In this document: positions 3,428-55,924 of the stretch, piece after piece
Numbering within the stretch: the first letter of the stretch is position 1
Layout: each line of letters opens with the position of its first letter
NCBI GenBank assembly: GCA_001244265.2
Contig: LN717261.1
Location: 2,743,591-2,807,590, forward strand
Direction: 5' to 3'
Length of the DNA stretch: 64,000 bases
Source: Microbotryum violaceum
Taxonomy: Eukaryota
Program-made: the position numbers and the translations under genes
Notes under the pieces: model-generated
What the model saw: only the letters and a program-made list of their open reading frames with translations
Told to the model about the DNA's origin: nothing
Databases searched by the model: none

Positions 3428-3494
3428 TACTAAATAAAGATAAAGGAAGGCGCGCCGCGAGTGTCGAGGTCTGTCGAGGTTGAGCCGCTCTCAG

Positions 3495-5120: not shown

Positions 5121-5506
5121 CTTGAACGCTCTTGAACGTTTGAACGCGCGAAAGCCTGCGAAGGCGATTTACGAGCTCGGGCCTCCTCGACTGTGCGACC
5201 AGCTAGGACCTAACCGAATATGTGAAATCTAATCAGGCTTGACTAGGTGCGGCGGCGCGCCGGAGCGCGCCACCTCCCACCGTAACCCTTGACCCGCTGC
5301 AATGTGATGTACTTTGCTGCAACAGCTGCGCTACTGTTGTAACGGAAACCTAGTGGTTCAAGTCCGGAGAGGACCGCGCGACGACGATCAAATGTACACA
5401 GCCTTCATTTTATCATTGAACTACTTTTTTGTTCTGCGGGAGCCCGATGATGGGTTCAGACCGTGGACCTTTTCACGGGTGTTGCAAGCTTGACTGGCGA
5501 GTATCC

Positions 5507-7138: not shown

Positions 7139-7958
7139 TGGCGATGGGATGAGGTGCGATGGGCAAGGTGTGAAGAGCAGGAGGGAGAAAGATGGAGAAG
7201 CCTGCGCCTCAGTTTGAACCGGACTCATAGAATGTCGTGGAAGGCCGTGGAACGTCCTGGAGTGAAGCCCCGTGACACGCTGGCGGGGCCCCTAACGGCG
7301 GAAGTGGCGCACTGGCCGACACTACCGAGGTCTGGCATAGATGATTGAAGGAACTACGCTACGATGTGGTAGACACGCAAAACAGGTCGTCTCAGTCTGC
7401 TTCGGGAAGCAGAGGGTCATGTGCCAGGCTGCTTTGATGGGAAATGGAACCTCGGCGAACGTAGGCGAAACGGTCTGTCGACCCATGCTGAAACAGCGCT
7501 AGCTAGTTCCGGGGACGCGCTGGACCGAGAGCTGCCTATGACGTCACGCCACGTGGTTTGTCTCCCGTTCTTTGACGTTCTTTGTGTCTTTGTCTTGGGG
7601 ACAACTTTTTTATTATGTAGTTTTAAGGAAGTTTTAAGGATAAGGATTCAAGGATACGCAAAAAAAGGGACCGCCAAGCTTGGCCTCGCTCTGGCCGACC
7701 GTGCCACTGCAGATTATTGCAGTCTGCTTCCCGCCCTCGTGACCTTGCAGTAGTGCTTTCGCCTCGAAGGCCTCGATTACGAACGAAGTCGTGCTCCCCG
7801 TCTGGCGAGTTCGAGCGAGAGGCCGATCCAACGTAGCACTTGGACGACCGGCCTCGCCATCTTTGCTCCATCGCGCCTCGCTGAGTCACTTCGTACGGTC
7901 GTCAGCCGTTACATGTCGCCGGGTCATTTCACATCCACCACCGCCACCACATAAGACT

Positions 7959-14270: not shown

Positions 14271-15312
14271 AACCCGCTACGAAGGACGCGTGGAGCACCG
14301 ACGTCCCGATCGCACGAGCTCGGATAGTTGGGGCCGCGAGAATCGGCGAGGGCGGGGTAGGGCGAGGGAAGGTCGCCCAGAGTTTGAAGACTGGCAGCTG
14401 GGGTCGAACAAGTCGAGGCAGGTCGAGGCGGAATAAACGCACAATGTAGAGGCTAGGACCGTGAAGCGGCGTTGACAAAAGGATGCGACTAGCTCCAGAC
14501 CTATGCGACTAGGGAACAAAGCACACACTGGTGTGGACTGGCGACAGGCGTGGACTGGCGACCACCTCAGGCAGGACCCCCGAAAGCCCAGCCATAGGCG
14601 GTCCTCCAAAAACGGCCTTTTTCGAGGCAAAATGTCCAAATTTTCTGCAGATTTTGACTGAAAATGTCCAAATATGAGGGCCGCCTAGTATTGAATGATT
14701 TTTGAAAACTACTCTACAAGCTCTACACTGCTCAGAAATTTTTCTGCGCTGCGCGCAGACCGCGTTTTCACCGCGCGCGGGCCGGAAAGGTCGCGCGCGC
14801 GCACACCAAGAGCGCCGCCAGCGCCACCTCGGGCAGACATAAAATACGCCTCAACAGGCGCACGCGCAGCGCCCCCTCACGCGCCTTCCAAGTCACTGCC
14901 TCAACGGCCCAGGGCGCCGACTTGGCCCAGGTTACACCCAACTCTCTGCTTCGAGTCGATTCTGTGTACACACAACACTCTAACAGCTGCTAGATTGATT
15001 GGGAAAGTGGTAGTAGATACATTCCTTCCTTCATATTTTTCTCGCATCTTTCGGATGTCGTCAATGTCACGTGTCCGAAGCGGTCGCGCGGGATTTCGGT
15101 CCCGAGATCGAAGGGTCCGAGCACACGCGTTGGCGGCAGTCGGCAGTCGGCCACGCGCGCCGAGGCCTAGCGCCACACGCGAGGGACCTTCCACTTGGCT
15201 TGCCGCCTCACCTCGTTGCTTTCGCTACAGCTCCTTGTAGCGTCGCCATCGACTGTACAGGCCCCACCGCTCGCGTTCGTCCTCTTGCTCATGCACTTGA
15301 CTCGGCGTCGCC

Positions 15313-18103
15313 ATGCCGCCAAAGAGAAGATATCGCTCGGTGTTCAACGTTCGGCTGCCCAAGTCCAAACCGTCGGACCACCCGGACCACCCCGACTTCG
15401 ACCTGCAGGATGCCTTTCTGCCCATCAACTACTCAACCCCCTACAGAACCTTCGTCGACAAAGGTGGTCGTAAAAGGAAAAGGAAAGAGCCACCAAATGC
15501 GAGCTCGTCAACAGCACCTACGCCCACGTCCAGCTCCACGTCGTCCACATTCCCCCCCCCCCCCCCCACAACACGAACCCATCCCAAGCGCTTCGGCCTC
15601 ACATTACACTCGTGGAAGCGACATCACTCAACAAGATCTGGACGAATTTGGGTAGGAAGGAGTGTGGGTGGATGAGGAGGACTTAGGTGGGATGGACCTT
15701 GCGTCGGAAAAAGCGCTGGAATAGACTGGTTACACACGTGTCGACGACTCCGACTCACCCCCACGCCCCACCCACCGACAACTCTACGCCACTCCGCCCA
15801 ATACCACCAGACGAGAAGGCTATCTCAAGTACATCACGCTTGACGCTAAGCTTCGGAAATCGCTCCGTGCCCAGCTGTTTGGGCGCTTCCTCGAGTTTCG
15901 CCGCGACAGCAAGCTCCATCTACGACCGCTCGTATCGGAAGACGATCTCGATGACCACGATGCTCCGCCGCCATGTGCGTGCAACTGCGTACTCACTCGC
16001 GAGATCATCTTGTACGATGTGACGGCATGTACGTGACAAGGCAGCTCAGCTTCACTGTCCCGAGTGTCAGTCACGAACCGAGCAGCACTGATGCGTGTCT
16101 CCCTCTTTACCTGTGCCTTCAGTCTACAAATTGCAGGTCACCTTCTGTGCCTCCGAGTCGCGGTGTGCTACGGACGTCGAACGCTTGGCCCAACTAGGGT
16201 TCATCTCTTCGACCGCTTCAATGCCGATGACCGCCTTCTCATTTCGACTGGTCGAGCAGGCCCACGCGAGCTGGAAGGTCAGCCCCCGCGCTATCACCGG
16301 CTATGCGGACGGCCTCAAAGAGTATTACTCCCGTTGTGGGTGGGGTCGGGATCACTATACGGGACATTCTTGGGTGAGTTTGGACGCCGCCATCGTCTCA
16401 CGGGCACATGCTTAAAGCCTGCCTTCCGCGCATACAGGACAAAGACCTTTGAAAGCAACGCGATCGACGAGTACCGCGCTCTCGAAACATGCGAGGAGGA
16501 CAGCGGGGGGGACCTTCTCGCAGGCACCGTCGATTCGTATTCCAACAAGTGTCCCGCGTGCTTCGGGCCAATGCGGCTTAATCAACCTTGTCACGACGTC
16601 ACATTGGATTGCGTGCTTGCATACGACGGCAACTTTCAGCAAACGCGTGAGAAAAACTCGAACCACGACCAGATTGTTCAGGACACTTTCTTGGGTGAGG
16701 AAGAGGTTCAGGCGATGAAGGCCGAGGTTGAAGCTTCGGTGCGGCCGACCCAAAAAGTGAGTAATGCCGCTCTTTGCATTTGCCTTAATGGGATCGCTTA
16801 CCTCTACACCCACCCACCGTCATAGGCGTGCACAGAGTCGTGGAAGGCTGCCGACGACGGAGCTGGCTCAACCTCGTCACGAGTAGTCGACACCGGACTC
16901 GTTGCCTGCGTATGCCGTCATGACGTGAACCTGAAAATGGTCAATCTTGAGAGGTCTGGTGAAGAGTAAGCGCGGAGCTGTCTGGCGGGACTTAGTCGCT
17001 TCCGCTTTCCTCTCGAATCCCAGTACTAATGCGCAGATTCCCCTCCGACCACTCAGATTGTACTATGCGCTTGCCATCCTCAAGCACATCTCAGAGCGCC
17101 TTAATGAAAACGCCAAGATCGGAGTCTTATACGACATTGCTTGTAACTTTAAGCACCATATTGAAAAGGTATGCTTCGATCACGACGCGTCCCTTCCTCC
17201 TTAGTCTCGTTGGCACAGACCAAATGTGCCTACTTTCTAATCATTTGTCACCAGAGGCAGCTCCTGCCAAAGCTTTTCAAGCGACTGGAGTTCGCCACGA
17301 GCGTCTTCCATGCATACGCCCATATCTGGTCCTGCCAAGTTGATTTCAACCCCTGCCTCATTCCGAACTTCGGGTTGACTGATGGAGAGGGCTGTGAGCG
17401 GGCTACGGTCGCTCATTCCGAGGAGTAGCAGCTGTGCGCGCCAAGGATCGAGTCGGTGAGGAGAAAGCGCGGATCGGCGCCGAGGTGCGGCAAGCTTTGG
17501 CTTGGATCGAAGATGTAAAGACTTGTATCACTAGTTGCCAAACACTTTGGACTAACGTGTCGGGTAAGTTTTCGATACAGCGTGCTCCATATCACCTCTT
17601 ATGTCGCCCTGACATCTTTCAAACCATCCCAACAGATACCCTTCCTGAATCCATCGACCCAGCTGATGCCAAGTCCATATTCGGCACTGAAGATGTTGAA
17701 GAGATCCGAGGCCGCGCGCCCATCATACTAGATCGCCGGATGGAGCTTCTGTAGCTGCGCGAATGTTCTTGGTCCCAGAACGAATACTTCTTCGATGTTT
17801 GGCTCGACACCCGCGGGCAGTCAGAGGGCGATTCCGAGCCCGCGTCCTGCACTGTCAGAATTTCGTGGTTTACATCAGCGATTGAACGCGACGGGAAGGA
17901 TTGTCGAGAAGGCGAAACATCACCAGCTACCTGCACATAACCGATCGGGAACACGCGGTCCTATGAAGACATCTGGCCTCGACGACTCGGCGCGGCCTGC
18001 ACCGCTGGCCCGTGACGTTCAACAAGTGCGGGTCATTCAGGCGCAGATGGATATGAGCGACGAGACTCAACTCGCAAAGGAGGTGGGGCCTTTCTCCGCA
18101 TAA
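15313..18103 (+). pseudogene. KDZ transposase with CxC1-like Cys cluster; multi-exon, frameshifted and apparently truncated
   Basis: Motifs FCASESRC...LAQLGFISSTASMPMTAFSF, KCPACFG, VLAYDGNFQQ, DTGLVACVCRHD, VLYDIACNF, SVFHAYAHIWSCQ...FGLTDGEGCER. Confidence 0.85.
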
Positions 18104-18384
18104 CTCCTCGAGCAGGACGGTGAGATGGGCAGCTCTTCGGTTGAAAGCTACGGCGATGAATTCGCTGGTCAGGAAGACGAATACTTCTCAGGCGTTTAGA
18201 CCAGCTTCTGATGTAGATTGAATTAGTGGAGCAACTTAATGTTGAAACAATGGACATGGCGTTTGCAAACTAAAGTCGTCTCAATTGCGGTAGGTGAGAG
18301 TAACAACACCGTTTTATAGGAAGAAATATTGTCAGACCTAATCTCTGGGCTGCGCCTGACTTACTAGGCTTCCGCCGGGTGACT

Positions 18385-18727
18385 TGCCGGGTGACTTTTC
18401 AATCAAAGTGCATACAACTGCTCGAGTACCTAGAATGTCTACCACGTGAAAATGGGTGATTGGGTTTGGTCAATATAGAGAATGTATCTCTTACCTTCGG
18501 ACAGGGTTGAATAGCAAAGTTGGCATGTGCGTGCAAGCCCTTCTTCCGAACAAGATGGCTCGGCGGTTTCCCATACCAGTGCCGGGTGACTTTTCAATTA
18601 AAGCGCATGCAACTGCTCGAGTACCTAGAATGTCTACCACGTGAAAATGGCTGATTGGGTTTGGTCAATATAGAGAACGTATCTCCTACCTTCGGACAGG
18701 GTTGAATAGCAAAGTTGGCATGTGCGT
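18385..18727 (+). repeat. ~148 bp direct repeat x2 inside the KDZ element
   Basis: 18385-18532 and 18580-18727 share GCCGGGTGACTTTTCAAT...CTCGAGTACCTAGAATGTCTACCACGTGAAAATGG...GGCATGTGCGT. Confidence 0.85.
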
Positions 18728-19706
18728 ATGGCTGGGCGGCTCTCTCTATGAGGATTCCCGCTCGAAGGATTCGACTTCCTGCCATGGCGCGGCAAAAGAC
18801 CCTTTGCACCGATCCCGATCCCTGCTACTGAGACTTGCGCCTGTTTTAAGAAGAGCTTAGTGTCAAGATCTCAAGCTCTAGTTTAGTTTATGCTTGACGG
18901 GGGCAGAAGTGCTGACAATTCATTTTAGGGCGGCGAATGCAAGAATTCTCTCTGCTTTGAGCACTCATTGTGGGGCCTGAAGATTGGTGGCCTACCTCAT
19001 TGATGAGAAGGAGTGTTTTTTCAAGTAAGAGGTAGGTATGAGCGACCATCGATCATGTCTCGGAGTCAATTGAGGTTCTCGCTCCAAGAGCCTGTTACAA
19101 GCCTAAGCCTTCCATGTTTTCCACCAACCCATTATCGCGTTCGACCCACTCTCATCAAGCACGTACTTTGTCGCTACTTCGCAAATTACGACTGATTACC
19201 TACGTGTTCCGCTCCGCTTGCGCCTTCAGAATTCAGGGGCTCAGATCAGTTCGCCTTGTTCTGGGAGCGCGCGCCGCTTGAAGTCAGCCGGCCGGGGGTC
19301 ATCACCGTGGCCCAGCAGCTCTGATTGGCACTTTGGCGAAGACCGAGCCCGGCCAGATGCAACCCTTGCCCGTTCACTTTCGTGCTAATAGATTATAAAA
19401 AGATGCTAACATACACTGCGATTAGTGGAAGGCCTTGCGAATTCTGTTCATTCATTCTTTTGCTCAAAGAGTCACTTCCGGAAAGCAGACGCTCCGTCTG
19501 GTCCACGGATCAGGGAGCACTCCATTCTCACTGGGCAATTCAACTCTACATAGTACTTCGAGAACAACCCAGCAGAACAAGAAGGATAGTGTTTGTGAGC
19601 AGGGTTACGTCCCTGGCACATCCCACGTCAACAAGGAGAGGTCGGTCTCGAGCGGCCCAGGGGAAGATTAGGTACGAAGGGCAACGAACAATCACCCTCT
19701 CCGCCT

Positions 19707-20810
19707 TTAGTCACCAAGAGCCGGATGCATATGAAGCAAAACTATAAAAGAAGGATCGTGGTGGCCTGTGTTGTCCAACGAATTCTGGCCCTTCAACAAC
19801 CAAGATCTCCGCACCGCATGCGCGTCGACGAGTCCGGCTGGCGCTGAAAGCTCGGCCATCGTCACCTCACTCGCTGTACTCGTCGGAGCTCGTGTTCCGA
19901 GCCCGCCCGTCAGCATCGCTGTCGCCGCCTTCATCGCCGTCGGCCATTGCCTGGTCTGCACTTGACCCGATTGCCTCTTCCTCCAGCATGAAGCTCAGCT
20001 CGCCTGCACGCAGCAATGGGATGATCTGATCCAGGTCGGGTCCCAACAACTTGAGCTTGCCACTCGGGCTTCGAAAATCCGCTTTGCGAAGGAGCGCGCC
20101 GCGCTGAACAATGATTCTGGCGTTGTCCCGGAGGGCCTTTACGTTATAGACGAACTTGGGCGATTGGATCTTCTCGCCGTCCAGCACGGAGCGTTGGCGC
20201 AGCGGGGACTCTGAAGACAGCGAGCCGGGTCAAAATGGGCACCATGTATGGAAGAGTAGGCAGGGTGCACTTCTTGTACTCACGGAACAGTTCCTTGAGG
20301 ATGATGTTGTACCATTGGCATTTGGTCTCAACGTTTTTGTCGGCCACGGGTGCGTTCCAAGCTGTGCGCAGACATTCGCTGATACATCCCTCTCTCCTGA
20401 TGCGCGGCCTCCCTCCTCGTCTTGGAAAACTTGTGCGGCCCGCAACTTTTGACGATCGCGAGCGGAAGGTGCAGTATTTGGCAAACCTGCCGCGTCACCC
20501 GTGCCGCCAGGATTGTTCCCTCCTTGTTCGACCATGCTTGCGATGCTTGCGAGATTGATGCTTGCTGGCGGAGCTAGATACAGGCCATCGATGCGTCCAT
20601 GATCGGGGAACGTTGGGACGGTAAACTGGTTGGTTGGACAAAGCAGATCCCGGCGACGATTGATAGTTGTACGACGCAGGATTCGAGATGGCCGTTACGC
20701 CAGCGAAAGTGGACGCTGGATCGGGTGCACGACGGTGTAACGTCAGAACAGACCGATGCTGTACGCGATCGACGCGACGGCCACCCACGGACCCGAATAG
20801 TCGTTACATG
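19707..20810 (-). CDS. Putative unknown cargo gene or pseudogene within the KDZ element
   Basis: Chain of protein-like - strand ORFs 20495-20788, 20230-20535, 20144-20347, 19867-20187 (e.g. KCQWYNIILKELFREYKK; SPKFVYNVKALRDNARIIVQRG); no recognisable family. Confidence 0.35.
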
Positions 20811-21535
20811 CGGACTGATAGGGAGTCCAAGGCAAGGTGCGCGACGCGTACCTAGAGGCAGCTTATGAACCTATGTGTCAGATGTGATCGTGAGCCGGTA
20901 GTCCAGGCAGAGCACCCGTGTCGATCGGCGGCAAACATACTGCTGTTCATCGCCGGAGCGCCAAACGTTGGCTGCGATTCGGGAGATGGTAAGTTGATTG
21001 GATTGACTCATCATGACAGGAGCAGCAAGACTATGACTGATCCGGTATTTCGAAGTGGGCGTTCGTTTCAGACTGTCGCAAGGTGACGGATGCTCGTTTC
21101 TAGTTCGTTACTTCGAATACGTAGTAGGGGGCGATTGGGCAAAGCAGAAGAATGGGAGCGTCTCCGGAGTCGTGACGCGTCGACGTCCCGGCCAGTCCCG
21201 GCCCCAATTGTTCCGCGCGACCCGTGCCGAATCACGTGTTCGAGGTAGAGCTCTTGTCCAGCTTGCAGAGGACAATAGTAACGCTCAAAAAATATGCAAA
21301 ACTCCGAATGCACTATTATTCGCCGACTGTGCCTTTGTTTCCAGGTTTTCCACCGAGTTGTAGTGGGAGTGAACGTCTCGGTAGCTCGACATCGAAGTGG
21401 GCATACCTCAACTGGGCCAAGTCGGCGCCCTGGGGTAGCAAGGCTGCACCCCGCCGAGGCAGTCAGTTGGAAGGCGCGTGATGGGGCGCTGCGCGCGCGC
21501 CTGTTGAGGCGTATTTTTTATGTCTGCCCGAGGTG

Positions 21536-21717
21536 CTTTCCACACCTAAGCCCTCTCCCTTTTCTGGGCTGGGTCCGTGCGCCTGACAGAAGTGGCTGGC
21601 CCAGCCGCGCGCTCAACCGAGCCAACTGGCTCCGCGCTTCTCTCTCTCCTGTTCAAGCAACTTCTTGGTCTGGTCTCCTTGGTCCGTCGATCAGAGCCTT
21701 ACCACCGCTTGAGCAGG
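21536..21717 (+). mobile_element. 5'-truncated copy of the solo LTR at 33285-33552
   Basis: CTTTCCACACCT...GAGCCAACTGGCTCCGCGC...CCTTACCACCGCTTGAGCA closely matches ~33366-33544 and begins directly after the KDZ right TIR. Confidence 0.8.
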
Positions 21718-22153
21718 CGTCAGATCTTCATAATGTAAAGTCAAAGCCACTGGATCTATGCAGCCCTCACATTCACAGAACCACCAACATAGCCGACGAG
21801 CGGTCGGGCCGGTCCGAACGGCCAGCTGTCAAATTCGACGCGATGATAGTATTAGTACTGGGTCGTCGGATCATTTTTTATATTTCTGGCTGTTGGAGAG
21901 CGAATTTTTGGGCAATCAACATATGTTCTCCGAACTCTTCCAGTGTACGACTCAAAATAGGTACAAATCGACCCCTCAGACACCTTATCCCGATGTACAA
22001 ATCGGCCTACATTTGCTGTTTTTCGAGACGCACATTGGGCTGAGCTTTCCCGGGTCCTGCTGGCGACAGCCTAGCGTGAGTGCGAAAGCAGCGCTTGGGT
22101 TCGTCTGCTGTCCTTTGCTAGGTTGGCCGCCAATCACCGCTTGCAGCTACTTC

Positions 22154-27900: not shown

Positions 27901-28964
27901 CACATCCCGATTGTCCAGCTCCCAGAAGCGCGCAGTGGCAGAGGCGGAAGTTCGCCAAGAGATCGAGTTGGGCGAGATTCATATCATAAATTGAATGTTG
28001 CTAGTGAGTAGGCGAGTGCTGCGTCCCTGATGTGAACCTCTGCTCCACTGCCTTCAGCCAAGGCTCTCCCGTACTACGACGTAGACACACTGTACGACTT
28101 TTCTTTTCGACAGAGACTGATGCACATTGCCGCATTGACAGACCATGGTGCGACAGCGATGGTTCATACACGTGATTGGAGGCGACGGACCTGCTCTCTC
28201 AAAGATGCTTGGTTTCAAGGGTCCAACCGCCAAATGGCCTTGCCGAGTCTGCCTCATTCAAGGAGTTCCATGCGCTGCTGCCCACAATCACAACTACTAC
28301 CCCTCAAGATGCCTCTCGACTCATCGCATGCGAACCGATCTGATCTGACCGCTTTGGATCTTCCCATGCGTTCGGAAGCAGCGATCCGCGAAGCGGCATC
28401 GGAAAAAAATCCTACATTCGGCCTCAGCAAGCTGAGCTCGGCGGCGCACCTTCCTGGATTTTCGCTTCATCAAGACGGACCTTCGGACTTCATGCACGCT
28501 GTCTTCGAAAACGTCGCTCGAAAGCTCTTCAATATGTGGCATGGTGACTTGGCGGCTCAGAAATCAAAGGGTAACAAGACCCAGGCGCCACAAGCTCAGA
28601 GAGGCAGATCCGCGCAAGGAAAGGTGACATCGGCGGCTAGTGCAGAAGCAACGACGTCCGCGGCCGCAGTAGACGAAGCGCTTGGGACCGACTTACCTGA
28701 CTGGGTGATACCAAACAAAATATGGGAGGTCATTGGCCAGGAAATTACCAACGGCGCAAAGACAATACCCAGCCTATTCGCTCGAAAGATGCCCAACATC
28801 CACCTACAGACTGGAGCAATGACTGCAGAGGATTGGTCGAACTGGATTCTCTATGTTGGCCCCTGTGTTCTTCATGATCGACTGCCCGCCAAATATTTCG
28901 CCCACTTCCTGGCGCTTCGGAGGTGGGCTAAAGATTGCATGGCTATGACAATCAACAAGGAGTA
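24939..28964 (+). mobile_element. Truncated CACTA/EnSpm-like (Tnp2-type) DNA transposon
   Basis: Starts CACTG at 24939, followed by subterminal repeats; transposase fragments VIGGDGPALSKMLGFKGPTAKWPCRVC (28145-28348) and DFMHAVFENV...MTAEDWSNWILY...YFAHFLAL (28120-28986). Right end not found. Confidence 0.65.
25031..25186. repeat. 26-bp tandem repeat x6 with internal dyad symmetry
   Basis: Unit TAATACCCATCTGAAGGGGTAATACC at 25031, 25057, 25083, 25109, 25135, 25161; degenerate copies at ~24963-25030. Confidence 0.93.
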
Positions 28965-29156
28965 TGTTGTTAGAAGTGGGGTCTGAGAGCCTAACTCATT
29001 GCTATTAGTCTTGGTTAATACTTTATTCTGCGCGCGCGCCTATCTTTGTCTTTGCGTCTTTTTTCCTTCTGGGTTCCTTCTCCACGCTATTCTCATCATC
29101 TCACTCGTGTATCTCGGAGCTGAGTCGTGGAGTACCTCTTAGTCCTTGTTTCAACA
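28965..29156 (+). mobile_element. Probable Copia-type LTR truncating the Tnp2-like ORF
   Basis: TGTTG...CAACA termini, followed by GGTT as after the Copia LTR at 61716; no target-site duplication seen. Confidence 0.5.
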
Positions 29157-29739
29157 GGTTGCAATTACTGCGGCACGTAAGCAAGGTTACCGGTCTATTG
29201 CTATCGTTGCCAGGCACCGGCTGCCTTTCGGTGTCGAAAGGATCGATCTGGCGGCAGATAGATTACGCCGAGCGCATGCGTTCAATCGTTATCAGTAGCC
29301 AAAAGTGGATGGAAATTTATCTGGGTGTCGACATCGAAAGTCAGCCTCTCATCGTTAGGGCTCTGAAGGTGCTGTCGCCACTGCTCGTTGAGGAGCAATA
29401 TACCCCCTCAATGATCCTCGGGTGTAGCGCGTCCTTACACACGCTACTCGATTTCGTGGGTAAGCAGCCAATTCGTTCGTCTGTTCGATGGCGTGATTGA
29501 TTGAAAGTATTTTTCGGGTTTTGCCTAGGGACAACGTGGCTTGGAGAAAGGTCTCGTCGTGCTGGACCCAAAAGAGCGGAAGTCAGTTGAAAACGCTGTT
29601 CGCTGTTTAGCTGCTCTTGGCCTTGACAATGATGCTGCACTGTAATTTGAGTGCTTGAGACCTGTACCAGCCTCCTCCGAGCTGATGATACGTCTCCTCC
29701 AATTCTAGGCTTGCCGTTCAGCAGGCCTATGACGAGGCC

Positions 29740-31263
29740 GATGCTCAAGCAGAGGAACGCTTTCTACTCGACGCCATTGAGACAGCAGATGAAAACTTGC
29801 CAGGTCGTGTAGGTTCATTTAAGTAGCAACTGTCTTCTTGCAGAACCACTAAACAGAACCAGCACTCTTTCGCCGGCTCAAATTATTCGGCTCCCATCTC
29901 TTCTGCGTCACGTCACTTGTCAGGTAGTGCTTGATCTGAAAAGCTTGATCGAGCACCGTCGGGCCCATCAATGTGCCCACCTCAAGGCTGTCCTACTCAA
30001 GGGAAGGCACGGCGCCTCCACCTCGACTGCCCAAGATTTCGATCCCACATCAAAAGCAAAATTGTCCGACCACGGTGAAGTGCACTCCAGTGTCCTCCGA
30101 GGCTTAGTGCAATCAATGGGTGCAGCCCGTCTCGAAGCCATGTCAGGAGTTGCGAGGTCCATTCGTTGGACAGGACAGGGGACCTTCAGTCGCTTTTCGA
30201 CCACAAACGAGACAGACAACATAGGATACATCGAAGACGGACGTAAAGAAGTGAGCTACAATTGTGTGCTGTGCACATATGGCCCAGAAAGTGCTCATCA
30301 ATAATGTTCATTCTTGCCCAGGTACGGATGCAATTGCGAGCAAAGCAATACACGGTATTTGCCAAGATCCCAACATTTGGGTTGATTGACGGAAACATCC
30401 TGTCAGCCATGCTACTGAAAATCGGCTCTCTTGTCTGCTTCAGATTGAAACGAGGCATCATACCTGGCAGTTGTGACGCCAGCAACATAGGAGAAGAACA
30501 ATTGTCCATTGGACTTGGTTCGTGCATCTCACTGTAGCTAGCTTACTGCTTTGCAGAGTGACTGGCATCAATTTTACCTCTCTTAGTACGTTAAATGTAT
30601 GCCAAGGCCACGTCAAATCATTGTGACAGAGCGGAGACCGACTCCCTCGCATTACTCTCGAATGTCGTCCTCCAAGAATGGCGAGTTGTGAGCAAGGGCG
30701 GTTATTCAACGCATATGATTGACGGCACGACTCGCTTCTTTGGACTCGATGCTCGACAAATTATTCAATCCTTGGAATCATCCTCAACGTCCGCCACTCT
30801 TGCACCCCAGGATTCAGTCGCATACCTCGGGGAGCGTGTCTTCGACTTAAGCCAGCAGGCTGAGGCAAGGCTCTGTTTTCTTCGACGCTGCAACGGAATA
30901 CGGAACGCTTCTGTGTCCTTGAGTAATCAAATGAAGGGTGTGAAAGATATATGGTCAAAAAGAAGGCAGCAAGTGCAGGTGAGGAGCCCTCAGCCAAGCA
31001 GAACCGAACTGGCTGACACGCGCGCGTGCTCCGCCGATTCGGCCCGAGCGAAAAACGTCCGGACGGCGTTTTCGCGATTTTTGGAGATGTTTTAGAGCGT
31101 TTGAAGCAATTCTAGAGCTGTTTTTCGAGGCGCGTAGATGGACTGGACATTTTGGGGACCTTTTTGGCCAAAACATCCAAAAAATGGTGGACAAATGAGG
31201 TCCTAAATCGGCGATTTTGGCGGGTTTTACCTACGCGCCTCAGGCTGGGCTTTCATGGGTCCT
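29740..31263 (+). mobile_element. 3' remnant of a diverged relative of the CAGGAC-TIR element
   Basis: LIEHRRAHQCAHLKAVLLKGR and LLSNVVLQEWRVVSKGGYSTHMIDG parallel LIAHRAAHECSHLRAVLLKGR (53598) and LLSNVVVQELRLIKKTCYSTHLIDG (54360); ends in the TIR-like GGCTGGGCTTTCATGGGTCCT. Confidence 0.8.
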
Positions 31264-45812: not shown

Positions 45813-48177
45813 ATGCCTTCCCCTCTAGATATCACGATCAAGCACGCGGGCAAGAGCTACCCGATCACTCTGGACCTCGACCAACCGGGTAGTCACTTCA
45901 AGCAACAGATCTTTGAGCGTACGGGCGTCGAACCGAGCAAGGTCAAGGTCGTCGTCAAGGGGGGAATGCTCAAGGTGCGCTTTCGACTGGATTGGAAGAG
46001 AGTCCTGATCGATCTAGTCGCCGGAATGAAAGGATAACACCGTCTGCGGGCTGCTCTTTGGCGATGACGCGTCGTCGCCCTCGCTTTCTTCAACCGAAGC
46101 CCTCCTCTGTCGATTGCGATGGCCTAATCAGGCGCTGATCCTTCCTTGTTCTTCAACTTGCTTACTACAGGATGATGCCGATTTCAAGAAACTCGGGCTT
46201 AAAGCGGTCAGTGGCCTGACTTACTGAGGCTTAGCTCAGACTCGCCCGGCGCCATCGCTGAATTTAAGCTTCCTCCATCTTAATGTAACACAGGGCCAGA
46301 CCATCATGGTACGTCTATACCGGACCAACACCCGTTGAAAAGAAATACTCGCCAATCACTTCATTCTTCGCAGGTCATTGGCGCCGCGAGTCCCCTGCCA
46401 CCCCCACCGACCGAGAAGATCGTCTTCATGGAGGACATGACCGACATTGAACTGGCCCAAGCAGTGCGTTTATGCCCTCCGCTTCTAAATTTATTAATTG
46501 GTAGGAATGTTTCTAACGCGTAATCAGTATCGTTTACAGGTCGCCACTCCTGTTGGATTGCAAAACTTGGGTGAGTGCTCTATTTGTCGCCCGCCAGAAA
46601 ACCGATCGCTCGCAACTCATCTCGCACGACTCCACAGGCAATACCTGCTACCTGAACTCAACCGTCCAGGTCCTCCGAGCTATCCCAGAGCTTCAAACCG
46701 CTCTTGACGCGTAAACACATTTCAAATCTGGCCATTCCCGTGTCCTCCTCTCCACCTGACTCTTGCTCCTTCTAAAAATCGTGCAGGCACCCCGGCTTAT
46801 CGTCCTCGGCAGCATCCGAATCCTCCCTCACCGCCTCCCTCCGAGACCTATACAAGAACATGTCCTCGACCCAAGAGGACTTTCCTCCCGTCGTTTTCCT
46901 TCAAATGCTACGTCAATTCGCACCCCAGTTCGCCGAGACCTCTCGAATGGGCGGAGGAGGTTTCGCGCAGCAGGACGCTCAGGAGGCGTGGGCCTCGATC
47001 GTGCAAGCTGTCAAGACGAGCTTGGGATCGAGTGGATCGGGATTTGTAGATCAGTACATGATGGGCGAAATGACAAAGACGTGAGTTATGGGTGGGAAAG
47101 TTTCTAGTGGGATCGTTGACCGATCATGACTGCTCTTCATTTGGTCTGAGCAGGCTCAAGTCGCCCGAGGCGCTTGGGGAAGAGCCGACGGTGTCGAAGG
47201 AACGTTTCCTCGAGATCAAGTGTCCCATCTCGGCTTCAACAACATACATGATGACGGGTATTAACGATGTAAGTTCGAGTTGAAGCTTTTGTTGCGACCT
47301 GGTCAAGCATTCCCACAACACTCACTCGTCCTTCCCCCACGATGACCAGTCGTTGAACCAAGACATCGAAAAAACCTCGCCCACACTCTCCCGCCAAGCC
47401 GTCTACCACGAAACGTCCCGCATTTCTCGCCTTCCCTCTTACCTGACCATCAATTTTGTCCGCTTCTACTGGCGCCGCGAGATCGGTAAAAAGACTAAGA
47501 TCATGAAGCGCGTTTCGTTCCCTCACGATCTGGACGTGATCAATCTCCTGACGGACGACTTGAAGAGTAAAGTCAAGGGGATGAATGTCAAGTTGAAGGA
47601 GGTGGACAAAGATCGTCGCGAGCGAGCCAAGGTTCGTCGAAGGGCCAAGAAGGTCGAGGAGGCGATCAAGGCTCCGATGCCTTCCACAACGACTGCCGCT
47701 GTTGCTGCACCTGCGAACCCATCCGATGATCCTCCCGAAGCCATGGCCGTCGACGACGCTACCCCTTCCACAACCAAGGCCGGCGAACTAGTCGATGAAA
47801 CCTCGAAACGACATGAAGAAGCCCAACTGTTGAACTCGCTCGTCGACCCTTCTCTCAAAGTTGATAAGGGAGCCAATGTGTCGGGTCTGTACGAATTGGT
47901 CGGGATCGTTTCGCATAAGGGAGCAAGTGCGGATGGTGGGCATTACGTAGGCTGGACTCGAGCGGATGCAATGGATCGTTCGAAGAATCCTGACCACAAG
48001 GGGAAAGGGAAGGAGGTTGATGTGGCGGATGTCGAAGACCCGGATAAGGTCGAGTGGTATAAGTTTGACGATGAGAAGGTGACGACGGTCAAGAAGGAGA
48101 AGATCACGCTGTTGGAGGGGGGTAGGGAGGACCATTGTGCATATATCCTCATTTATAGATCAAAGTCGTTGGAGTAG
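45813..48177 (+). CDS. UBP6: Proteasome-associated deubiquitinase Ubp6/USP14, multi-exon
   Basis: N-terminal UBL (FKQQIFERTGVEPSKVKVVVKGGMLK), Cys box PVGLQNLG/NTCYLNST, FAQQDAQE, SRLPSYLTINFVRFYW, His box HKGASADGGHY, WYKFDDEKV. Confidence 0.95.
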
Positions 48178-48448
48178 AGGAAAGGATCATAGCCCGGAGC
48201 ATGAAATGAAGATAGGCGGCTGAGGTCGATCGCACGGCTAGATAGTAGACAGCTTGAATGGTGTCGACCGCCCGGCTAGTGAACATAGCGAGAGTCTGCA
48301 CGCTGCATGCTGATCTACATGCCAGGTTGACGTAAATGCCACCCTGGCAAGTCACCGAAGGGCTCCCTGTACCCAAATGAGCTCGGCGATCCCAAAGCCA
48401 GCGCGCCGTGCACGATCAGCAACCGGCGGCCTGCTCGCTCGCGCGCTG

Positions 48449-51400
48449 CAGGACCCCCGAAAGCCCAGTCGGAGGCGCCTTTTTTTTTTTTTTTTTTTTA
48501 CATTTTGAGGACCCAAAATCCTGAAAATCGTCGAGGCGCATCGCAAAAAATTGACATTTTGGGACGAAACACACGTTTCGCCCCCGAGCCGCATGGCCAG
48601 ATTTTGACATTTTCCCGTGAGTCGGCCCAATTTTGGCCTACCCTGAGCAGCCTACGGCATCGCTTTGGGCCCGTTTGCCTTCGCTTCGAAACGCGCATCG
48701 CGATGCTCGCGCTTGAACAAGTCACTAGCCATTTTCGCTAATCACTTTAGTTCAGTGGCTGTTAGAGAATATTAGGGATTAGATACCCCTATCGAGTAAG
48801 ATAAAAATGACGGGGCCCCTGAGGTTCCGTTTCGCTTCACTTCGTTCTGACACTGGAGCATAGCACGACGAAATAATTCCATGCTTGTTTCTTGACGAAG
48901 ATCAGGACTACTATTTGCACGACGATGACTTTGATCAAGTATCGCCGCTCACCAACATGACGGTTGCCGAGCTCCTCGCCTTCGATGTCGCTCCCGCCGA
49001 CGCGTCTCTTCACATCGAGTTGTCCAAAGACGAGCCCACCCAGTATTCGAACTTACCCTACCCGACTCTTCAGACCAGAGACGCGTTTCTCGCTACCGAT
49101 GCTCTGATCAATGCACGCAAGAAAGGATATCGATCTTTGGCCGTCGGGTCGACGTGTTTGCCGCTCGGCTATGGTCAGAGTACGACCGAGCAAAAGACGT
49201 TCAAAGCTGGGCGCTGCGAGCTCAACGATGGATGGACAAAATCATCGTTATCAACGAAATTGACCGCAACCGTATCGCTGTCGCACGTCGCATACTGAAC
49301 GGATTGCAATGGCAAGAGCAAGACGGGCTTCTACCATTGCCTCTTCTTGCAAGTGGAACGAGTTTGGTTTATCTCCTGAGATTCTTAACTCAGTACACCA
49401 ATCCTTCAGCTGGCCACTCGTATTCATCTCGTATCTGAGGCAACTTGCTTATTCGCGTCTCTACCCAGGTCATGATTGGCTCGGTGAAGCCGCGGTGAAC
49501 TTGTCAATTGAAAGCGTCCTTCGAGCTGGACGAGTGCAGAATCCCGATTTCGAAACATCGTATGGACTTATACCCTCCACCGTCATCTCCTTGGTAATGG
49601 CTCGCCCTCCCGACTCGGATCCTCATTCGGTCTTCAAAGCCTGCTTTTTCGGCCCGCCAAACCAGTATCGGAATCTCATCGAGCTAGGCGATTGCATGCG
49701 CAACACGCCGACGTCAAAGTCAATCTGGTTTCTACCCCTCTGCTCCGACAGCCATTGGGTCCTGGCCCGCATCAACATGCACAAGCGGACATGGTCTGTG
49801 ATCAACTCACTCTCCGCCACTCCGATCACCGCGGCTACTCGGACGGCCGTCCTTACGCTATTCAAATTTCTGAAGCTGGACATCAGAAACGAGTTCCCTC
49901 ATACTCCTAAGGCGGAACAACAGGAAGACAGCTACTCGTGCGGGCCGGCTACGATCAATGCAGTGGAGACGGAGGTGCTCGGGATTGGGTCATTCAACGC
50001 AGAGCGCGCTCACATGTCACGGCTCCGTCAATTCTGTCGTTTATCCTCTCTGGTTGGTGCTGTCGAGGATCCCAAAGAGATCGAATCCATCGTTGCCACG
50101 GGCGCAAAATCAAAGGCAAAGTCTGGGAGGGGATCCGCTGCCGCAACACTGAGTAGCAAGAGCACGTCGGCAGAGTCCGGCAAGGCAGCGACAATCAAGC
50201 CAACAAATCAACGAGTCGCATCATCCTCAAAAAACCCGCCAACTTCTCGACTTCAAACGACCTTCACCAAGGCATCGAAGTCGACGAAAGCTCGAGAGCT
50301 CACCCCCGAGAAGCATACGATGTGGGCTCGCGACCATCCGCCTCTTTTCAGGAGGCTTGCTGAAAAAGTCGAAGATCTTTGCCCGGGATCGAATGTCAAC
50401 GTCAACAATCCAAAATACGTGCGGTGTGGACGATGTTATGTCTTGGTGCCAATGGCGGCCTTGCTGTGCAAGGCACGATTTGAATTACATCTCGGCAGTA
50501 AGAAGTGTGTCAACCTCCAACCCATCAGCAATTTTCTTCAGACCTATCGCCTGTGGCTCAACTGCTCCCAGCCCCTCGCTAGGACCGTGCCCCGGCCTTA
50601 CGTCTGAAACGGCGATACATTGTCTTTCATCAACTGCGGCGCAGGGTGGCGGGGCCCCTCCTCGACGGACGCTTTGTTTGCGCCTCTATCCCAAAATTGG
50701 TAAACGACCAATGACGGAGCTCGAGAGGAAGGAGGTGGACAAATTGGAAGCAAATGAATGGAAGTGGCGCAACGATCATCGAGCACCGCGCATCATCAGT
50801 GTGAATTGTTGCAAGTATAGCGCTCGAGATTCGATCAACAAGGACGGACCAAGCTTACCGTGTGAAGAATACGCGAAGCTTCCTAAGAATTCATCCTGTC
50901 GAGCAGCTCTTCGACATCAATATGCTGCTGGCGCAACTCGCAAATACACAACAAGAAATATGTCGCGGGCGATACACTTCTCTCGGCCATCTACCGGCGA
51001 CATCATGGACTAGAAGAGATCCTGGATGACAACAGTCAAGGGACCGTGTATCTACGATTCGCGCAAGGTGTGGCCTCAGGAGAATTTGACGGAGCGAACA
51101 TCTTGGAGGGATTGGTGAAAGCGGCTACGGTCAAGCACGATCGGATGGTCAAGGGCAAATCAATGCGAGGCTTTGTGCGGTCCGAAGCGCTGCGTGACTT
51201 CGAGCAAGCCATGGCGCTGGCGTCTCCGATGGCTCTGAGAGTGCTGCAGGCTACAATCGGCGCATCCACAAGCCGAAAACTGCAGTGAGTACCGTCATTC
51301 TTTCGTTCCTTCAATTCAACCTCATACTGAATGATCGAGGTGCTTGCAGAATGGACCAAGCGACATCAGACAGGATGCGCCTCGGCCTCGACAAGTCCAA

Positions 51401-54400
51401 CATGGATCGTGTCTGCGCCAAACTCGAAGCAGACGACCTAACGTTCAATTTACACTTAGACGACACGAAGTGTCGATCCAGGATGCGAACCACTCCATAC
51501 TACTCAGAAGACCTCAGTTTAGAGCGCGAACTACGTACGAAGGGCATATTCCGCCACGAGCTGATCGGATCAATTGGTCCGCCACGCATCTACGAAACTC
51601 CGGGTGAACTCCCTGATATGTTCAGCGGACCTGACCCCCGGTTGCTGGAACCAAAGTGAGTGACAATGATTTTTTTAAGTTTGTACTTCATTTCCATGAG
51701 GCTTTAACATGTGTCGCCTCTTCATTCAGATCCGAGCTTACATGATAGCACCGAACGATGTTGGCTCCCCAGCACAGGTGTTTGCCGCTTTTGTGATCGG
51801 CGAAACTACGAACGCGGAGGACGCGACCGAACAGTTACATTCAGTGATACAAGAATTAAATAAAACGTTGCGTCGCACACCTTCTGGTATCCATCTCCGC
51901 AGATGGTGCGGCAAGCGAGGGTGTGCTGCAACGTAATGTTGCCGTCCTTCTGCGCGATCAGGGTGGCGCTGTTGCTCAAACCGGATCAAGGAACGCGTCA
52001 TCATACACCCTCCCCTCCCCAGATCCGGACGGAGTGTTTCCTGAGATCACTATATCGACCGTCAACGTCGCGGGAACGCCGATAGTCTTCTGTCGGGACG
52101 AAAAACACCTGGCCAAATGTCTGAAGAACGCTATCGACTCTGGAGCAAGATTGCTGTTCGGTGGTCTCGGATGCATTGCCTACCAGGCTATGCTCACCAT
52201 CCTGGGCGGACTGGAGTCGCGTCGTACTCTGTCTCGTCGTGATGTGGTCGGGCGTGATCGTCAAGACGACAATGCAACACATCGGGCATTCTCCAAGGCG
52301 ACGCTCGAACTCGTAACCGAACTCGCTGAAGACAAAAAACTCGACCCCGATGCGGTCGTATATCTCTTATGTGGCGAGTTACACGATGCCATCCAGAACC
52401 GGTCGCTTCAGCCCCTTGAACGTATCAGGATGTTGCTCGTTGTCAGATATACGTTCGAGGCGTGGTATGACTTTGTCCGAAGTCGCCCCGGATCTAGCTC
52501 TCACTCGTTCCTCGCCAAAGAAACGCTTGATGGGGTCAGGAAGATGGTTGACTCAACGATTGCTTTCGTCCGCAACTACCGAGATTTTTGGCCGAAGGAA
52601 TCGTTCATTCCCTGGCGGCATGGCACAGAAATGGTGGAGCACTTCTTCGGGGGTATACGCCAGATTGTAAAGGAGTTCGATGCTCTAGAGTTCTTGCAGG
52701 TGCGTTCTTCATAAATCAATCTAATCTATACAGTAGTCAACCCGGCTAGAATCCGACAGGCAACTGGCAAAGTCACTGCACTCTTGGAGCTCATGAGGAA
52801 GTTTAAGACCGAGGCGGCGGGATCACGTCAAGGCTACCATCATACCTACAACGACCTCGACGATCTTGACCTTGTTGCGATGCGAACGTACCCCAGTGAT
52901 GGCGACATCTCTCTCACCAGTTTTGCAGCGGCAAATACTGCGCGTGAACTGCTTTCAGGTTTACGCATGTGGGAGCCTGTGCAACGCATCGCGTCCAACA
53001 GACGCAACCAAGGTCCGCAACCTGACATACTCGTCGAGGACGTACTCGCCCGTGGCACAACAGTTCAAGGTATGGAGTTGCGAACGACTTGGTCTATAAG
53101 TGATGCGTATCTGACACGGGATACCATGCCCACTTGAAGTAGATCTTGAAGACCATCATCCTACCAAGGAAGATCAAGGTCTGCTCCGCACCGAATTGCT
53201 GGATTCTGCTCTTGATGGCATGCGGCGTAGCACGTGCCAAGGTGTTGTGAAACTGGACCCAAACGAGCGGGAAGCTGTCGACCGTGCAATTCGATCGCTT
53301 GCAGCTCTGGACTTTGACGTTGAGGCAGCCTCGTGAGTGGACACTTCACTGTGCCACGTGCGCTGAAGCGTTCTTCTACCTTTTAATCCGGACCTCATAT
53401 TGTTCTCCTTTCTCATTGGCCAGACTCGACGTGCAAATCGCTTACGACGAAGCTGACAGACAAGCTGAGGAACGCTACGTACTCGAGACCATTGACAAGG
53501 CAAACAGCTCATTACGTCCAATCGTGCGTCTACCAAGCTCAACTAGCGTAATTTCGATCTGAGCTCATGCATCTTCGGTACTATACAGCCTACACACTTG
53601 AAGCTTCCGCCTCTTGTTGATGCTCGCGATACCAGTTCCTCGCTGAACTGGGCCAGCTTGATTGCCCATCGAGCTGCTCATGAGTGTAGCCACCTCAGAG
53701 CTGTTCTACTCAAAGGGAGGCCAATGGAATTGAGCGACACAAGTCGCGGAGCGGCAGGCTTAGAGATTAGCAATACAGAGCAAGGACGCAGTGCAGTACA
53801 TTCACGCGTCTTGAAAGGGTTGGTGCAGTCCATGGGACCATCTCGCTTCGAAGACATTGCGGGCACCGCAAGGAGCTTTCGCTGGACTGGAGGTGGCCAG
53901 GTGGCCCGAGCGCTCACAACAAGCGAGATTCAGAAGAACGCCTATATTGAGGACGGCCGCATTCAAGTGAGTTGTTGCTGAATTTAGGAACGAAGGCAGC
54001 TGGATCTAATGTTTTTCCGGTCCTATACTTTTAGGAAAAGCTCCCTGAGAGAGACAAGCAGTACGGAGCGCTAGCACAACGCTATCCTCATTTTGGATCG
54101 CTTGACGGAGCTGTAACCGCTGCCACACCATTGGAGATTAGATCTCTGATCTGCTTTGGCCTCAAGTGTGGCATGCATTCACTCAGCTGCGATCAAACTG
54201 TTTATGGAGAAGAAGCGCTGTCTATCGGAATTGGTACGCGCGTTGTTTTGAGTGACAGTTGAGGAAGTTCTCGTTTGACACAAGTATTGTGTCCTACAGT
54301 GCGACACATCTACAGCAGAGTGACAACAAACCACTGCAACCAAGACACGCTCCGCCTCGTTGGTTCTACTCTCAAATGTCGTCGTACAGGAGCTTCGCCT

Positions 54401-55013
54401 CATCAAGAAAACATGCTATTCCACACACCTCATTGATGGCACTATGCCGTTCCGCATGATTGATGGTCGACAAGTCATCGAGTCATTAGGCCCGTCAACG
54501 ACTACATATCGTTCAACCACGGACCTTACCTCATGTTACCCAGACGAGCGCCTAATCAGCACGAGCGCACATGCCGAGCAAAGGTTTGCCGCCCTTCGGA
54601 GCGTGCCCGGCCTGCGAGATGCCGCCGGCAGAACCTCTACAAGCCGCACAAATGCCACCGCGGAAACAAGGAGCTCAACTTCAGCAAAAAAGAAGTCTGC
54701 CAACGAAGCAGCGAGCCAGCCAGCAAAGCAAGGAAGGCTTGTTTGAAGCGTGGAGCCACGCGCAACACCAGCCGAAGCGACGCGCGCCGCAAGCCACTTT
54801 CGATAGGCCGCGGCGCGCCCGCAAACGCTCGGAACGCGTTTTCGAGGACTTTTGAGCGATTTTTGGAGCATGTGGAACACATTTTGATCATATTTCCGAG
54901 GCGCATGCCAAGTTTTGACATTTTGGGGCCAAAATAGGGTAAAAACTTTGACAAAAAGGCCAAGAAAGGGCGTTTTTTCGCATGCGCCTCTGGCTGGGCT
55001 TTCGGGGGTCCTG
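48449..55013 (+). mobile_element. 6.6-kb TIR DNA transposon encoding a Ulp1-like protease and P-element-like DDE transposase
   Basis: ~30 bp TIRs CAGGACCCCCGAAAGCCCAGTCGGAGGCGC / GCGCCTCTGGCTGGGCTTTCGGGGGTCCTG; CGCTG directly flanks both ends (48444-48448, 55014-55018); continuous + strand exon chain inside. Confidence 0.85.
48881..54746 (+). pseudogene. Multi-exon protease-transposase gene with frameshifts
   Basis: C48-like WFLPLCSDSHWVLARIN...VINSL...QQEDSYSCG (49309-50607); Cys motifs RCGRC; LHLDDTK (~51460), SISADG (~51900), RDEKHLAKCLKN, RDRQDD, WRHGTEMVEHFFGGIRQ (51923-52714). Confidence 0.7.
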
Positions 55014-55924
55014 CGCTGACGTCGTCGATCTCTCTCTGGCGACGACGCGTTCTTCCGTTTGACGAGGACGCGACTTGAAATCCCCCCTTTCTTCGGCTTT
55101 CTTCGCCGTTGCCGTTGGAATCGTCACCGTCCCTTGTCCACGCTCGTCTTGCCCCCTCCGGCTACACCCCTAACCCGCCAAGTGAGCAGTGTCCTACGAC
55201 CCCGAGTCATTCTTTCGGATCATTGGATCTACCTTCTGTTTCTTGGGATTCAACGCATCTGTCAAGGTGAGTGATCGTGTGCGTTGTTCCTGAATGGTTC
55301 GTGCATGTCCGAAACCAGGGTAGGCCGGGTCACGGCTGCGGCACCGCCCGTTGCGAGCGGCGTGTGCGAAAGCGGTGCGAGCCCAGCCCTAGGCCAGAAG
55401 GCCAAAATTGAGCCTTCGCAGGACGAATGGGGGAGGTGTTGGGTGGGTGCAAGGGGCTGGACGGGAGTGGAAGGATAGTATGGTCCAATGCTGGGCTGGA
55501 AGATGAAACGGCTTGCTCTAGGGCTTGCGCCCATCCGGTGGGTGACGACCACGAAGGCACACGCGGCCCGTCGGGACCGTTCGTGGCATGACGTGACTAG
55601 AGTAGCCTTGGCCAGAGGCGCAACCGATCCTAACACAAAGACTAACCATCTCGAAAACTTTCCGAGTTCAGGTATTGACCATCTCTCTACTCTACAGGTC
55701 CATAAACTAGCCTGTGCGGCAATAGCAGTGCGCGCAACACCGGAGCCTTCTTTCGCGCCTAAGTAAACGAACTTGTTGGAACCTTTGTCCGGGGTAACGA
55801 CGTGCTGCGTACGACGAGCTAGCGGAGTCAGTCTTGGTCACCACTCTCATACGTCGGCTAGTCAAGCTCCGAAAGTCCAAAGACAACATCGGAAACGGAA
55901 TCGTCTTCGTGGTGATTCGCCAAG

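Follow-up and report, generated by a model that had tools for sequence, protein, structure and literature searches.

Which kind of mobile element carries a SUMO-protease-like domain together with a transposase resembling that of the P element, and does so in a fungus? This question is raised by a stretch of Microbotryum violaceum DNA of 64,000 nucleotides (nt) (assembly GCA_001244265.2, contig LN717261.1, positions 2,743,591 to 2,807,590 of the forward strand), hereafter called the window, to whose first letter all positions refer. A sequence-only reading of this DNA had proposed a poorly described P-like family with terminal inverted repeats (TIRs) and an N-terminal Ulp1-like protease. Our main finding is that a DNA transposon of 6,563 nt (6.56 kb) spans positions 48450-55012 on the + strand; it is best explained, with a probability that we put at roughly 0.85, as an inactivated copy of an autonomous-type element from a Basidiomycota-wide lineage of the P element/THAP9 superfamily.

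Between the two TIR arms lies a chain of open frames, all on the + strand, that encodes an N-terminal Ulp1/C48 protease and then a large transposase. Every motif named in the sequence-only reading was found on this strand at exact coordinates: HW starts at 49753, QEDSYSCG at 49921, LHLDDTK at 51450, SISADG at 51890, DEKHLAKCLKN at 52097 and TEMVEHFFGGIRQ at 52625. Ulp1/C48 is followed by a disordered linker and then by a folded, Cys-rich module, after which come a helix-turn-helix (HTH) and a DDE domain of RNase H fold into which a large helical insertion domain is set. The coding region maps as follows (P0001 and similar labels designate related proteins):

48957-48983, + strand: likely coding start (MTVAELLAF...), from which the N-termini of P0009 and P0010 align; the start codon is putative.
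49708-50031, + strand: Ulp1/Peptidase_C48 catalytic domain (PF02902), with the His codon at 49753, the Cys codon at 49939 and Asn, not Asp, as third triad residue.
50425-50899, + strand: Cys/His-rich region between protease and transposase, with conserved C/H columns (CGRC...H...C, PCPGL, C...PCxxC).
50950-51285, + strand: HTH region of the transposase, which aligns to residues 377-487 of P0001 and lies inside the model part (residues 22-535) matching P transposase.
51357-52699, + strand: split RNase H catalytic domain with its large helical insertion domain, placed by alignment, the P0002 model, fold match and conservation.
51459-51464 (D), 51902-51904 (D), 52097-52129 (DEKHLAKCLKN) and 52637-52639 (E), + strand: candidate D, D and E and the DEKHLAKCLKN motif.
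About 51660-51726, + strand: single intron in the RNase H region.
52760-54740, + strand: C-terminal region of ~600 residues in several exons, located by tblastn to P0001 and P0009, with family-conserved motifs and no confident fold.

The 284-residue open reading frame (ORF) at 51860-52711 matches Microbotryum silenes-dioicae gene models at 95-97% identity over ~45% of the query, and also matches more distant Microbotryum proteins. In a HMMER scan of 1.84 billion representative proteins, the family reached 540 matches at a threshold of E<=1e-3, of which 328 remained at E<=1e-10; a further search for homologues, based on words, contributed little, with just 7 proteins. Twenty representatives were looked up, 18 of which were named, and 18/18 belong to Basidiomycota, in the genera Schizophyllum, Pleurotus, Trametes, Mycena, Steccherinum, Ceratobasidium, Cylindrobasidium, Moniliophthora, Hohenbuehelia, Phenoliferia, Amylostereum, Marasmius, Phanerochaete, Pluteus, Coniophora, Paramarasmius and Microbotryum. 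We take these genera to represent Microbotryomycetes plus at least five orders of Agaricomycetes. Long members have 1,400-2,000 residues, with the core motifs at about residues 900-1,400 in constant spacing, and the elements of the family measure 6.2-7.7 kb. A scan of metagenome contigs with the family alignment added 128 relatives, 80 of which were fetched; the metagenome locus counts below rest on these 80.

P elements had been described as rarely reported in fungi. This is true of the published survey, whose main text gives P as single occurrences with Pfam models, 11 copies in 1,730 genomes, and describes the fungal P elements of Repbase as 'Only Pucciniales & Allomyces', with 17 entries in 2017 (PMC5751038); it does not extend to the P-fold family described here, with its 540 representative proteins. 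The Repbase elements, compared by description only, are also fungal, and some come from the subphylum of Microbotryum, Pucciniomycotina; they and the family described here may be the same lineage.

The assignment to P is carried by structure. The relative P0002 (862 residues, 64% identical to the window ORF) was folded by AlphaFold2 with the family alignment, giving a model whose predicted local distance difference test score (pLDDT) is high over about residues 20-530 and low after residue 530. Foldseek against the PDB retrieved P transposase (6pe2/6p5a) at E 5e-13, the next folds being RAG1 (4.7e-4) and Hermes (8.5e-4). With VIA-align, model residues 22-535 fell on residues 128-564 of Drosophila P transposase (6p5a_A), with a Z score of 28.5 and a root-mean-square deviation (rmsd) of 3.1 Å over 401 of the 442 resolved residues; the alignment covers the HTH, both RNase H halves and the insertion domain. 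Z scores for other folds were 13.1 for Transib, 11.2 for RAG1, 11.0 for Tn5 and 10.5 for Hermes. Moreover, a single model of P0010 recovers both Ulp1 (E 1.9e-7) and P transposase (E 1.7e-6) in Foldseek. The P-like transposase read from the sequence is thus upheld. So is an RNase H fold at the proposed D/D/E, which had been set as a test beforehand: the P0002 model has a P-type fold there, and the candidate D (LHLDDTK), D (SISADG) and E (TEMVEHF) occupy the expected places, the first D on a strand, the second directly behind a strand and the E on a helix, and are conserved in 50/51, 51/52 and 50/51 sequences of a 53-sequence alignment.

Like the Drosophila P and vertebrate THAP9 transposases, the family combines in one fold an HTH, a split RNase H domain and a probable P-type helical insertion domain. 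D230, D303 and E531 would be the P transposase counterparts of the candidate D/D/E; the insertion domain lies inside the aligned range, and the spacing from D to E is similar to that of P. As in P, the catalytic E is preceded at a distance of three positions by an acidic residue (E-x-x-E in the family, D528 and E531 in P; this and other P-element features are drawn from part of PMC7776569). PF12017, the Pfam model of the P transposase HTH, scores 25.9 bits in P0034 against a cut-off of 23, and matches 3 of 44 members at E<=0.05. In the ESM Atlas, a feature search gave three top clusters at 0.93-0.94, two of which carry PF21787/8/9 while rank 2 is a family-less Basidiomycota cluster, and a structure search gave THAP9 clusters at template modelling (TM) scores of 0.67-0.75 by query; by features and by structure, the nearest named clusters are P/THAP9.

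Several results weigh against this placement, and they would suit a family that forms a separate superfamily-level lineage, sharing ancestry with P inside the P/hAT/Kolobok/Transib split RNase H group without being P. Identity to Drosophila P transposase is 13%. Nine transposase pieces of the window had no Pfam match at E<=0.1, PF12017 included; the Pfam models of the P catalytic region fail to recognise the family, PF21787 matching 1 of the 44 members at E 0.035, below threshold, and PF21788 (GBD) and PF21789 none at E<=0.05. The link to P indeed had to come from structure, since the family profile, searched against PDB sequences, found no P transposase at E<=10 and only Ulp1/SENP-type proteases. 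Unlike P and THAP9, the family has no THAP domain, either in the 44 members (E<=0.05) or in the window pieces, and carries a Cys-rich module in its place; in the passage available from PMC7776569, THAP is stated not to be found in fungi. Other differences from P are an added N-terminal Ulp1 protease and a C-terminal region of ~600 residues, a protein of 1,400-2,000 residues that is about twice the length of P transposase, an element of 6.2-7.7 kb as compared to 2.9 kb, and the termini AGGACCC. The failure of PF21787 and PF21789 argues for deep divergence. We nevertheless consider a separate lineage very unlikely: the Z score of 28.5 includes the insertion domain and stands against at most 13.1 for other transposase folds, one member scores above the PF12017 cut-off, P/THAP9 are the nearest of the named Atlas clusters, and the target-site duplication is 8 bp long.

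This last point comes from the relatives. In the window, a CGCTG repeat flanking the element had been taken for a 5-bp duplication, too short for P and hence a possible sign of a separate lineage or a chance match. Around the coding regions of metagenome relatives, an unbiased inverted-repeat search found TIRs of 21-35 nt, and 12 of the 14 printed pairs start with AGGACCC, the other two being different repeats. Pairs of the form AGGACCC...GGGTCCT, 4.5-9.5 kb apart, were then collected; there are 19, of which 17 have both flanks (the distinct pairs may be 16, as loci L010 and L012 have identical flanks). A perfect 8/8 duplication was found in 10/17 pairs and in 0/17 in any of six shifted registers, and none of the ten extends to 9 bp. 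All ten elements with an 8-bp duplication carry the family protease region on the transposase strand. As judged from these relatives, the family makes 8-bp duplications, as the P element does (PMC7776569, in part), and 8 bp (or 7) would be expected in the Microbotryum branch; the exact duplications of the relatives resolve the doubt over the 5-bp repeat in favour of P. The record is not uniform, and some of it counts against the classification: 7/17 metagenome pairs have no duplication, scoring 3/8 or less, likely through chimeric assembly of the repeat; the window copy has six perfect bases and no clean 8-bp duplication; and no duplication is shared by the flanks of two other sets of ends in the window, those of a derivative at 3494-5121 (3/8 in the 8-bp register) and those of a pair at 14571/22060. 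At one metagenome locus (L032, 6430-6441), the 8-bp duplication TACAGGAC is followed by CCCA, so that the target looks like the terminus of another element (nested insertion). At another (L056), the element lies inside a second inverted-repeat pair of 65 nt (7578-7642 and 15988-16052) that begins CACCCGTCGG, possibly another transposon.

Duplications of 8 bp are also typical of hAT elements. A hAT-type element would further account for the split RNase H domain with insertion domain and for Hermes being among the fold matches; Hermes, however, aligns with a Z score of 10.5 and an rmsd of 6.9 Å as compared to 28.5 and 3.1 Å for P transposase, and neither the hAT dimerisation domain nor any other hAT Pfam family occurs in the 44 members at E<=0.05, which makes a hAT origin extremely improbable. 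No KDZ Pfam family is among the six families reported for these members at the same threshold.

With the termini of the relatives in hand, the limits and repeats of the window copy read as follows:

48450-55012, + strand: whole element, a frameshifted copy, delimited by its TIR pair, by termini set against those of relatives and by the contigs of other copies, which diverge past 55012.
48450-48478, + strand: left TIR, beginning AGGACCCCC, within the arm 48448-48478 (94%); the AGGACCC terminus is also found in relatives.
54984-55012, - strand: right TIR, from the inverted-repeat search; the loose ends of other copies start after 55012 and 55013.
48443-48448, no strand: direct repeat GCGCTG on the left flank, separated from the terminus by a single additional C (48449).
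55013-55018, no strand: right copy of GCGCTG, from motif coordinates in the window.
48497-48614, + strand: three subterminal copies of TTGACATTTTG (at 48497, 48551 and 48604, ~53 nt spacing), candidate transposase-binding sites.
54915-54925, + strand: subterminal TTGACATTTTG copy of the right end, from the motif count.

The ~30-bp TIRs of the sequence-only reading are real: the arms, 48448-48478 and 54984-55014, are 94% complementary over 31 nt, and the TIRs measure 29-31 nt. Their proposed start at CA, in turn, had to be moved. As the true termini of the relatives are AGGACCC...GGGTCCT, the element runs from 48450 to 55012, one base further in on each side, and the contigs of other copies, which leave the window sequence after 55012, agree with this right terminus. 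The flanking CGCTG is present on both sides; its 5-bp length was an error of register, the repeat reading GCGCTG. The flanks are ...C-GCGCTG-C/AGG and CCT/GCGCTG-AC, so that the perfect repeat is 6 nt; taken as 7-mers they match at 6/7 (GCGCTGC and GCGCTGA), or at 7/8 as an 8-bp duplication with a one-base deletion. The first 20 bases of the inverted repeat, CAGGACCCCCGAAAGCCCAG, are found at 7 places in the window when up to 3 mismatches are allowed, as compared to an expectation of 0.01, and an exact-match scan of metagenome contigs for it gave no match. The TTGACATTTTG motif has 11 matches in the window against 1.12 expected, and 0/100 shuffles reach 11. These ends resemble those of the P element in the length of the TIR (~30 nt in the family, 31 bp in Drosophila P according to part of PMC7776569), in the subterminal repeats and in the many internally deleted derivatives that they bound.

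Two minor features adjoin the ends. GC stands next to most Microbotryum termini of the window (3/3 left flanks end in GC, 3/4 right flanks begin with it). This could reflect either a preference for GCNNNNGC targets or a TIR longer by two bases, the ends being too few to decide. A run of ~21 T at 48479-48499 lies directly inside the left TIR, and read cover is cut there in the sequencing-run contigs.

The second half of the question concerns the protease. The N-terminal Ulp1/C48 domain proposed from the sequence was confirmed at two levels: the window ORF 49264-50604 matches Pfam Peptidase_C48 (PF02902) at 25.8 bits over residues 149-256, above the cut-off of 20.7, and the family profile matches yeast Ulp1 (1euv, E 2.5e-17) and SENP1 (E 7e-16) among PDB sequences. 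A fold match was obtained on the relative P0010 (M. lychnidis-dioicae, 1,173 residues), not on the window copy: its model retrieves 2hl8, 2hkp and 1euv at Foldseek E values of 1.9e-7 to 3.7e-7, with TM scores of 0.62-0.64 by target, and NEDD8 proteases (2bkq, TM 0.74) also rank high. In the 53-sequence alignment, the Ulp1 catalytic columns hold H in 39/41, D in 35/42, Q in 41/42 and C in 41/42 sequences; that an active site is conserved in so many copies of a transposon argues for a domain that serves the element. Against it stands the Asn that replaces the catalytic Asp in the window copy and in P0001, P0010, P0011 and P0029. Asn can serve as third residue in papain-type triads. The His-Asn-Cys triad is clade-specific, with Asn in Microbotryomycete members (49753-49810 in the window) and Asp in Agaricomycete members.

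Pfam finds C48 in 17/44 family members and, in the upstream ORFs of 10 metagenome elements, gives one weak C48 match, while a family-specific hidden Markov model detects the protease region in 10/10 of the latter. In six of these ten (L030, L032, L041, L045, L055 and L056), the protease region is split between two frames at profile position ~155, a pattern that probably reflects a conserved intron inside the Ulp1 domain. A family-conserved GGG after the protease was considered as an Ulp1 self-cleavage site and set aside, as in the P0010 model it belongs to a module folded with confidence and is not part of the linker.

Are protease and transposase parts of one protein? They might instead be separate products, of two genes or of alternative transcripts, with the fused database proteins being gene-prediction artefacts. 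Two points that bear on this also count against our own account: an uninterrupted ORF over both domains was found in 0/80 metagenome loci, where the longest ORFs (614-691 residues) hold one part, and the fusion rests on gene models made by others. In addition, the two parts are separated in the P0010 model by a linker of ~160 residues with pLDDT <50, and P elements themselves make two proteins by alternative splicing (PMC7776569, in part). In the window copy, in contrast, ORF 49264-50607 leads without a stop from the protease, by way of the linker, to inside the first Cys/His module, and the frame break at 50532 is absent from high-depth contigs. In gene models from many species, C48 and the core belong to a single protein in which C48 comes first; C48 is matched in 17 of the 44 members noted above. 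In the metagenome locus L044, the ORFs of protease, middle part and core share a frame and are parted by single stop codons only. Separate products therefore appear unlikely to us, and a single polypeptide is the reading retained here.

How such an element would move can be proposed from these parts. The transposase would bind the ends of the element, with the Cys-rich module probably making contact with the subterminal TTGACATTTTG repeats. This module, which stands between linker and HTH, is folded in the P0010 model (about residues 550-665, pLDDT 77-91); the Cys/His-rich region is probably zinc-binding and DNA-binding, and it would replace THAP, whose position it occupies, as the end-binding domain. 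The transposase would then excise the element and reinsert it by P-type cut-and-paste with an 8-bp stagger; for P transposase itself, a GTP cofactor, with D528, K385, K400, V401, S409, F443, D444 and N447 as contacts, and a 17-nt staggered donor cleavage are described (PMC7776569, in part). The Ulp1 domain, made in the same polypeptide, would act on proteins of the host or the element by removing SUMO or a related modifier, which would most likely benefit the element by easing transposition or post-excision repair, or by countering SUMO-dependent silencing. We infer, in other words, a SUMO-type isopeptidase that may help transposition, via repair or chromatin factors or against silencing; that its function is purely inferred is a further point against the overall account, and the naming of any specific target for the protease is doubtful.

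A broader proposal is tentative, and we lean against it. P-type transposons would be ancient, abundant and Basidiomycota-wide, and Ulp1 would be a functional part of the transposase, stripping SUMO from the transposase itself or from host factors of chromatin, silencing or repair; it would be needed for transposition and act as a built-in counter-defence or as a means of steering repair. The lineage would then have escaped notice because it diverged beyond the Pfam models and swapped THAP for another DNA-binding module.

Zisupton elements carry an Ulp1/C48 domain. Such domains are also described in Ginger1, in Mutator-like elements and in oomycete Cryptons (PMC2836005 and PMC3212892, each in part). 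All of them share with the fungal family a C48 protease encoded inside a mobile element, and in Ginger1 it is fused to the transposase; the protease is C-terminal there and N-terminal in the fungal P-type family, and the partner enzymes differ, being an integrase-type DDE in Ginger1, a Mutator DDE in Mutator-like elements and a tyrosine recombinase in Crypton (same sources). For the protease of other Ulp1-bearing elements, a passage of the Ginger paper raised a role in transposition or repair (PMC2836005). In the full-text literature, we found no pairing of a P-type transposase with Ulp1, no P elements described in Agaricomycetes and no published description of the family, which agrees with its being called poorly described; the main text of PMC5751038 contains no occurrence of Ulp1, and Repbase and the supplements of that paper may hold related entries.

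The family has three consequences. It corrects the reported distribution of the P superfamily, thought to be nearly absent from mushroom-forming and smut fungi; its defined termini and profiles allow annotation of ~6.5-kb repeats in basidiomycete genomes; and it adds P to the transposon classes that recruited an Ulp1 protease. Schizophyllum and Pleurotus are genetically tractable. With such hosts, the long-standing question of the use of Ulp1 to transposons becomes testable.

What is the state of the window copy? Other copies were read from contigs of public sequencing runs, among which are three DNA runs (X1, X3 and X8). Compared to the high-depth contigs, the window copy has six frame-breaking indels, at 50532, 50948, 51634, 51858, 53072 and 54352, all at sites of frame switches in the tblastn alignments, and an additional in-frame indel at 52364. 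Comparison with P0009 shows a Tyr in the window copy at one of the conserved Cys positions of the Cys-rich module. With six frame-breaking indels and this replacement the copy cannot act alone, and its sequence marks it as a dead copy of an autonomous-type element. On both flanks, the contigs of all three DNA runs continue into the TIRs, and each run therefore has the insertion at the site; the runs offered no unoccupied site in which the duplication could be read. Contig word depth in the element interior exceeds that of the flanks about 9-10x (563 versus 60, 271 versus 24, 46-85 versus 6) and is much higher still at the element ends; word depth is no copy number, and we take it solely as a sign of a multi-copy family with many deleted derivatives. 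Contigs that join 49100-49146 to 54053-54056 are joints of such derivatives. A further run (X15), guessed to be RNA, gave an unspliced 4,957-nt contig across 49006-53953, which says nothing on expression or fusion.

One derivative lies in the window itself:

3494-5121, - strand: second copy, a 1.6-kb internally deleted non-autonomous derivative made of element parts 1-626 and 5583-6567 (blastn identity 89% and 95%), with the same subterminal motif pattern as the full element; its deletion joint resembles those of the sequencing-run contigs.

Upstream of the full element, the 3' part of a ubiquitin carboxyl-terminal hydrolase (UCH) gene (47284-48177; Pfam UCH, E 5e-26) ends ~270 nt before the insertion, so that the element sits in intergenic DNA or in a 3' region. 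At 14571-22060, a stretch of 7.5 kb is bounded by TIR-like ends of the element's type, with 0 and 3 mismatches over 20 nt; tblastn finds no P-like protein encoded inside it, and it may represent a non-autonomous relative into which other insertions have gone. By eye, the ORFs 16037-16825 and 28036-28986 resemble KDZ (CxC...DGNFQ) and Plavaka/EnSpm-type transposases; neither has a Pfam match, the likeness is unconfirmed and we make no claim on it. The window looks transposon-rich. A sister family is represented at 29707-31263 by a 3' fragment that lacks the 5' part and is 67-91% identical to P0001; it ends in a similar TIR (31235-31263) and has a TGGACATTTTG motif at 31144.

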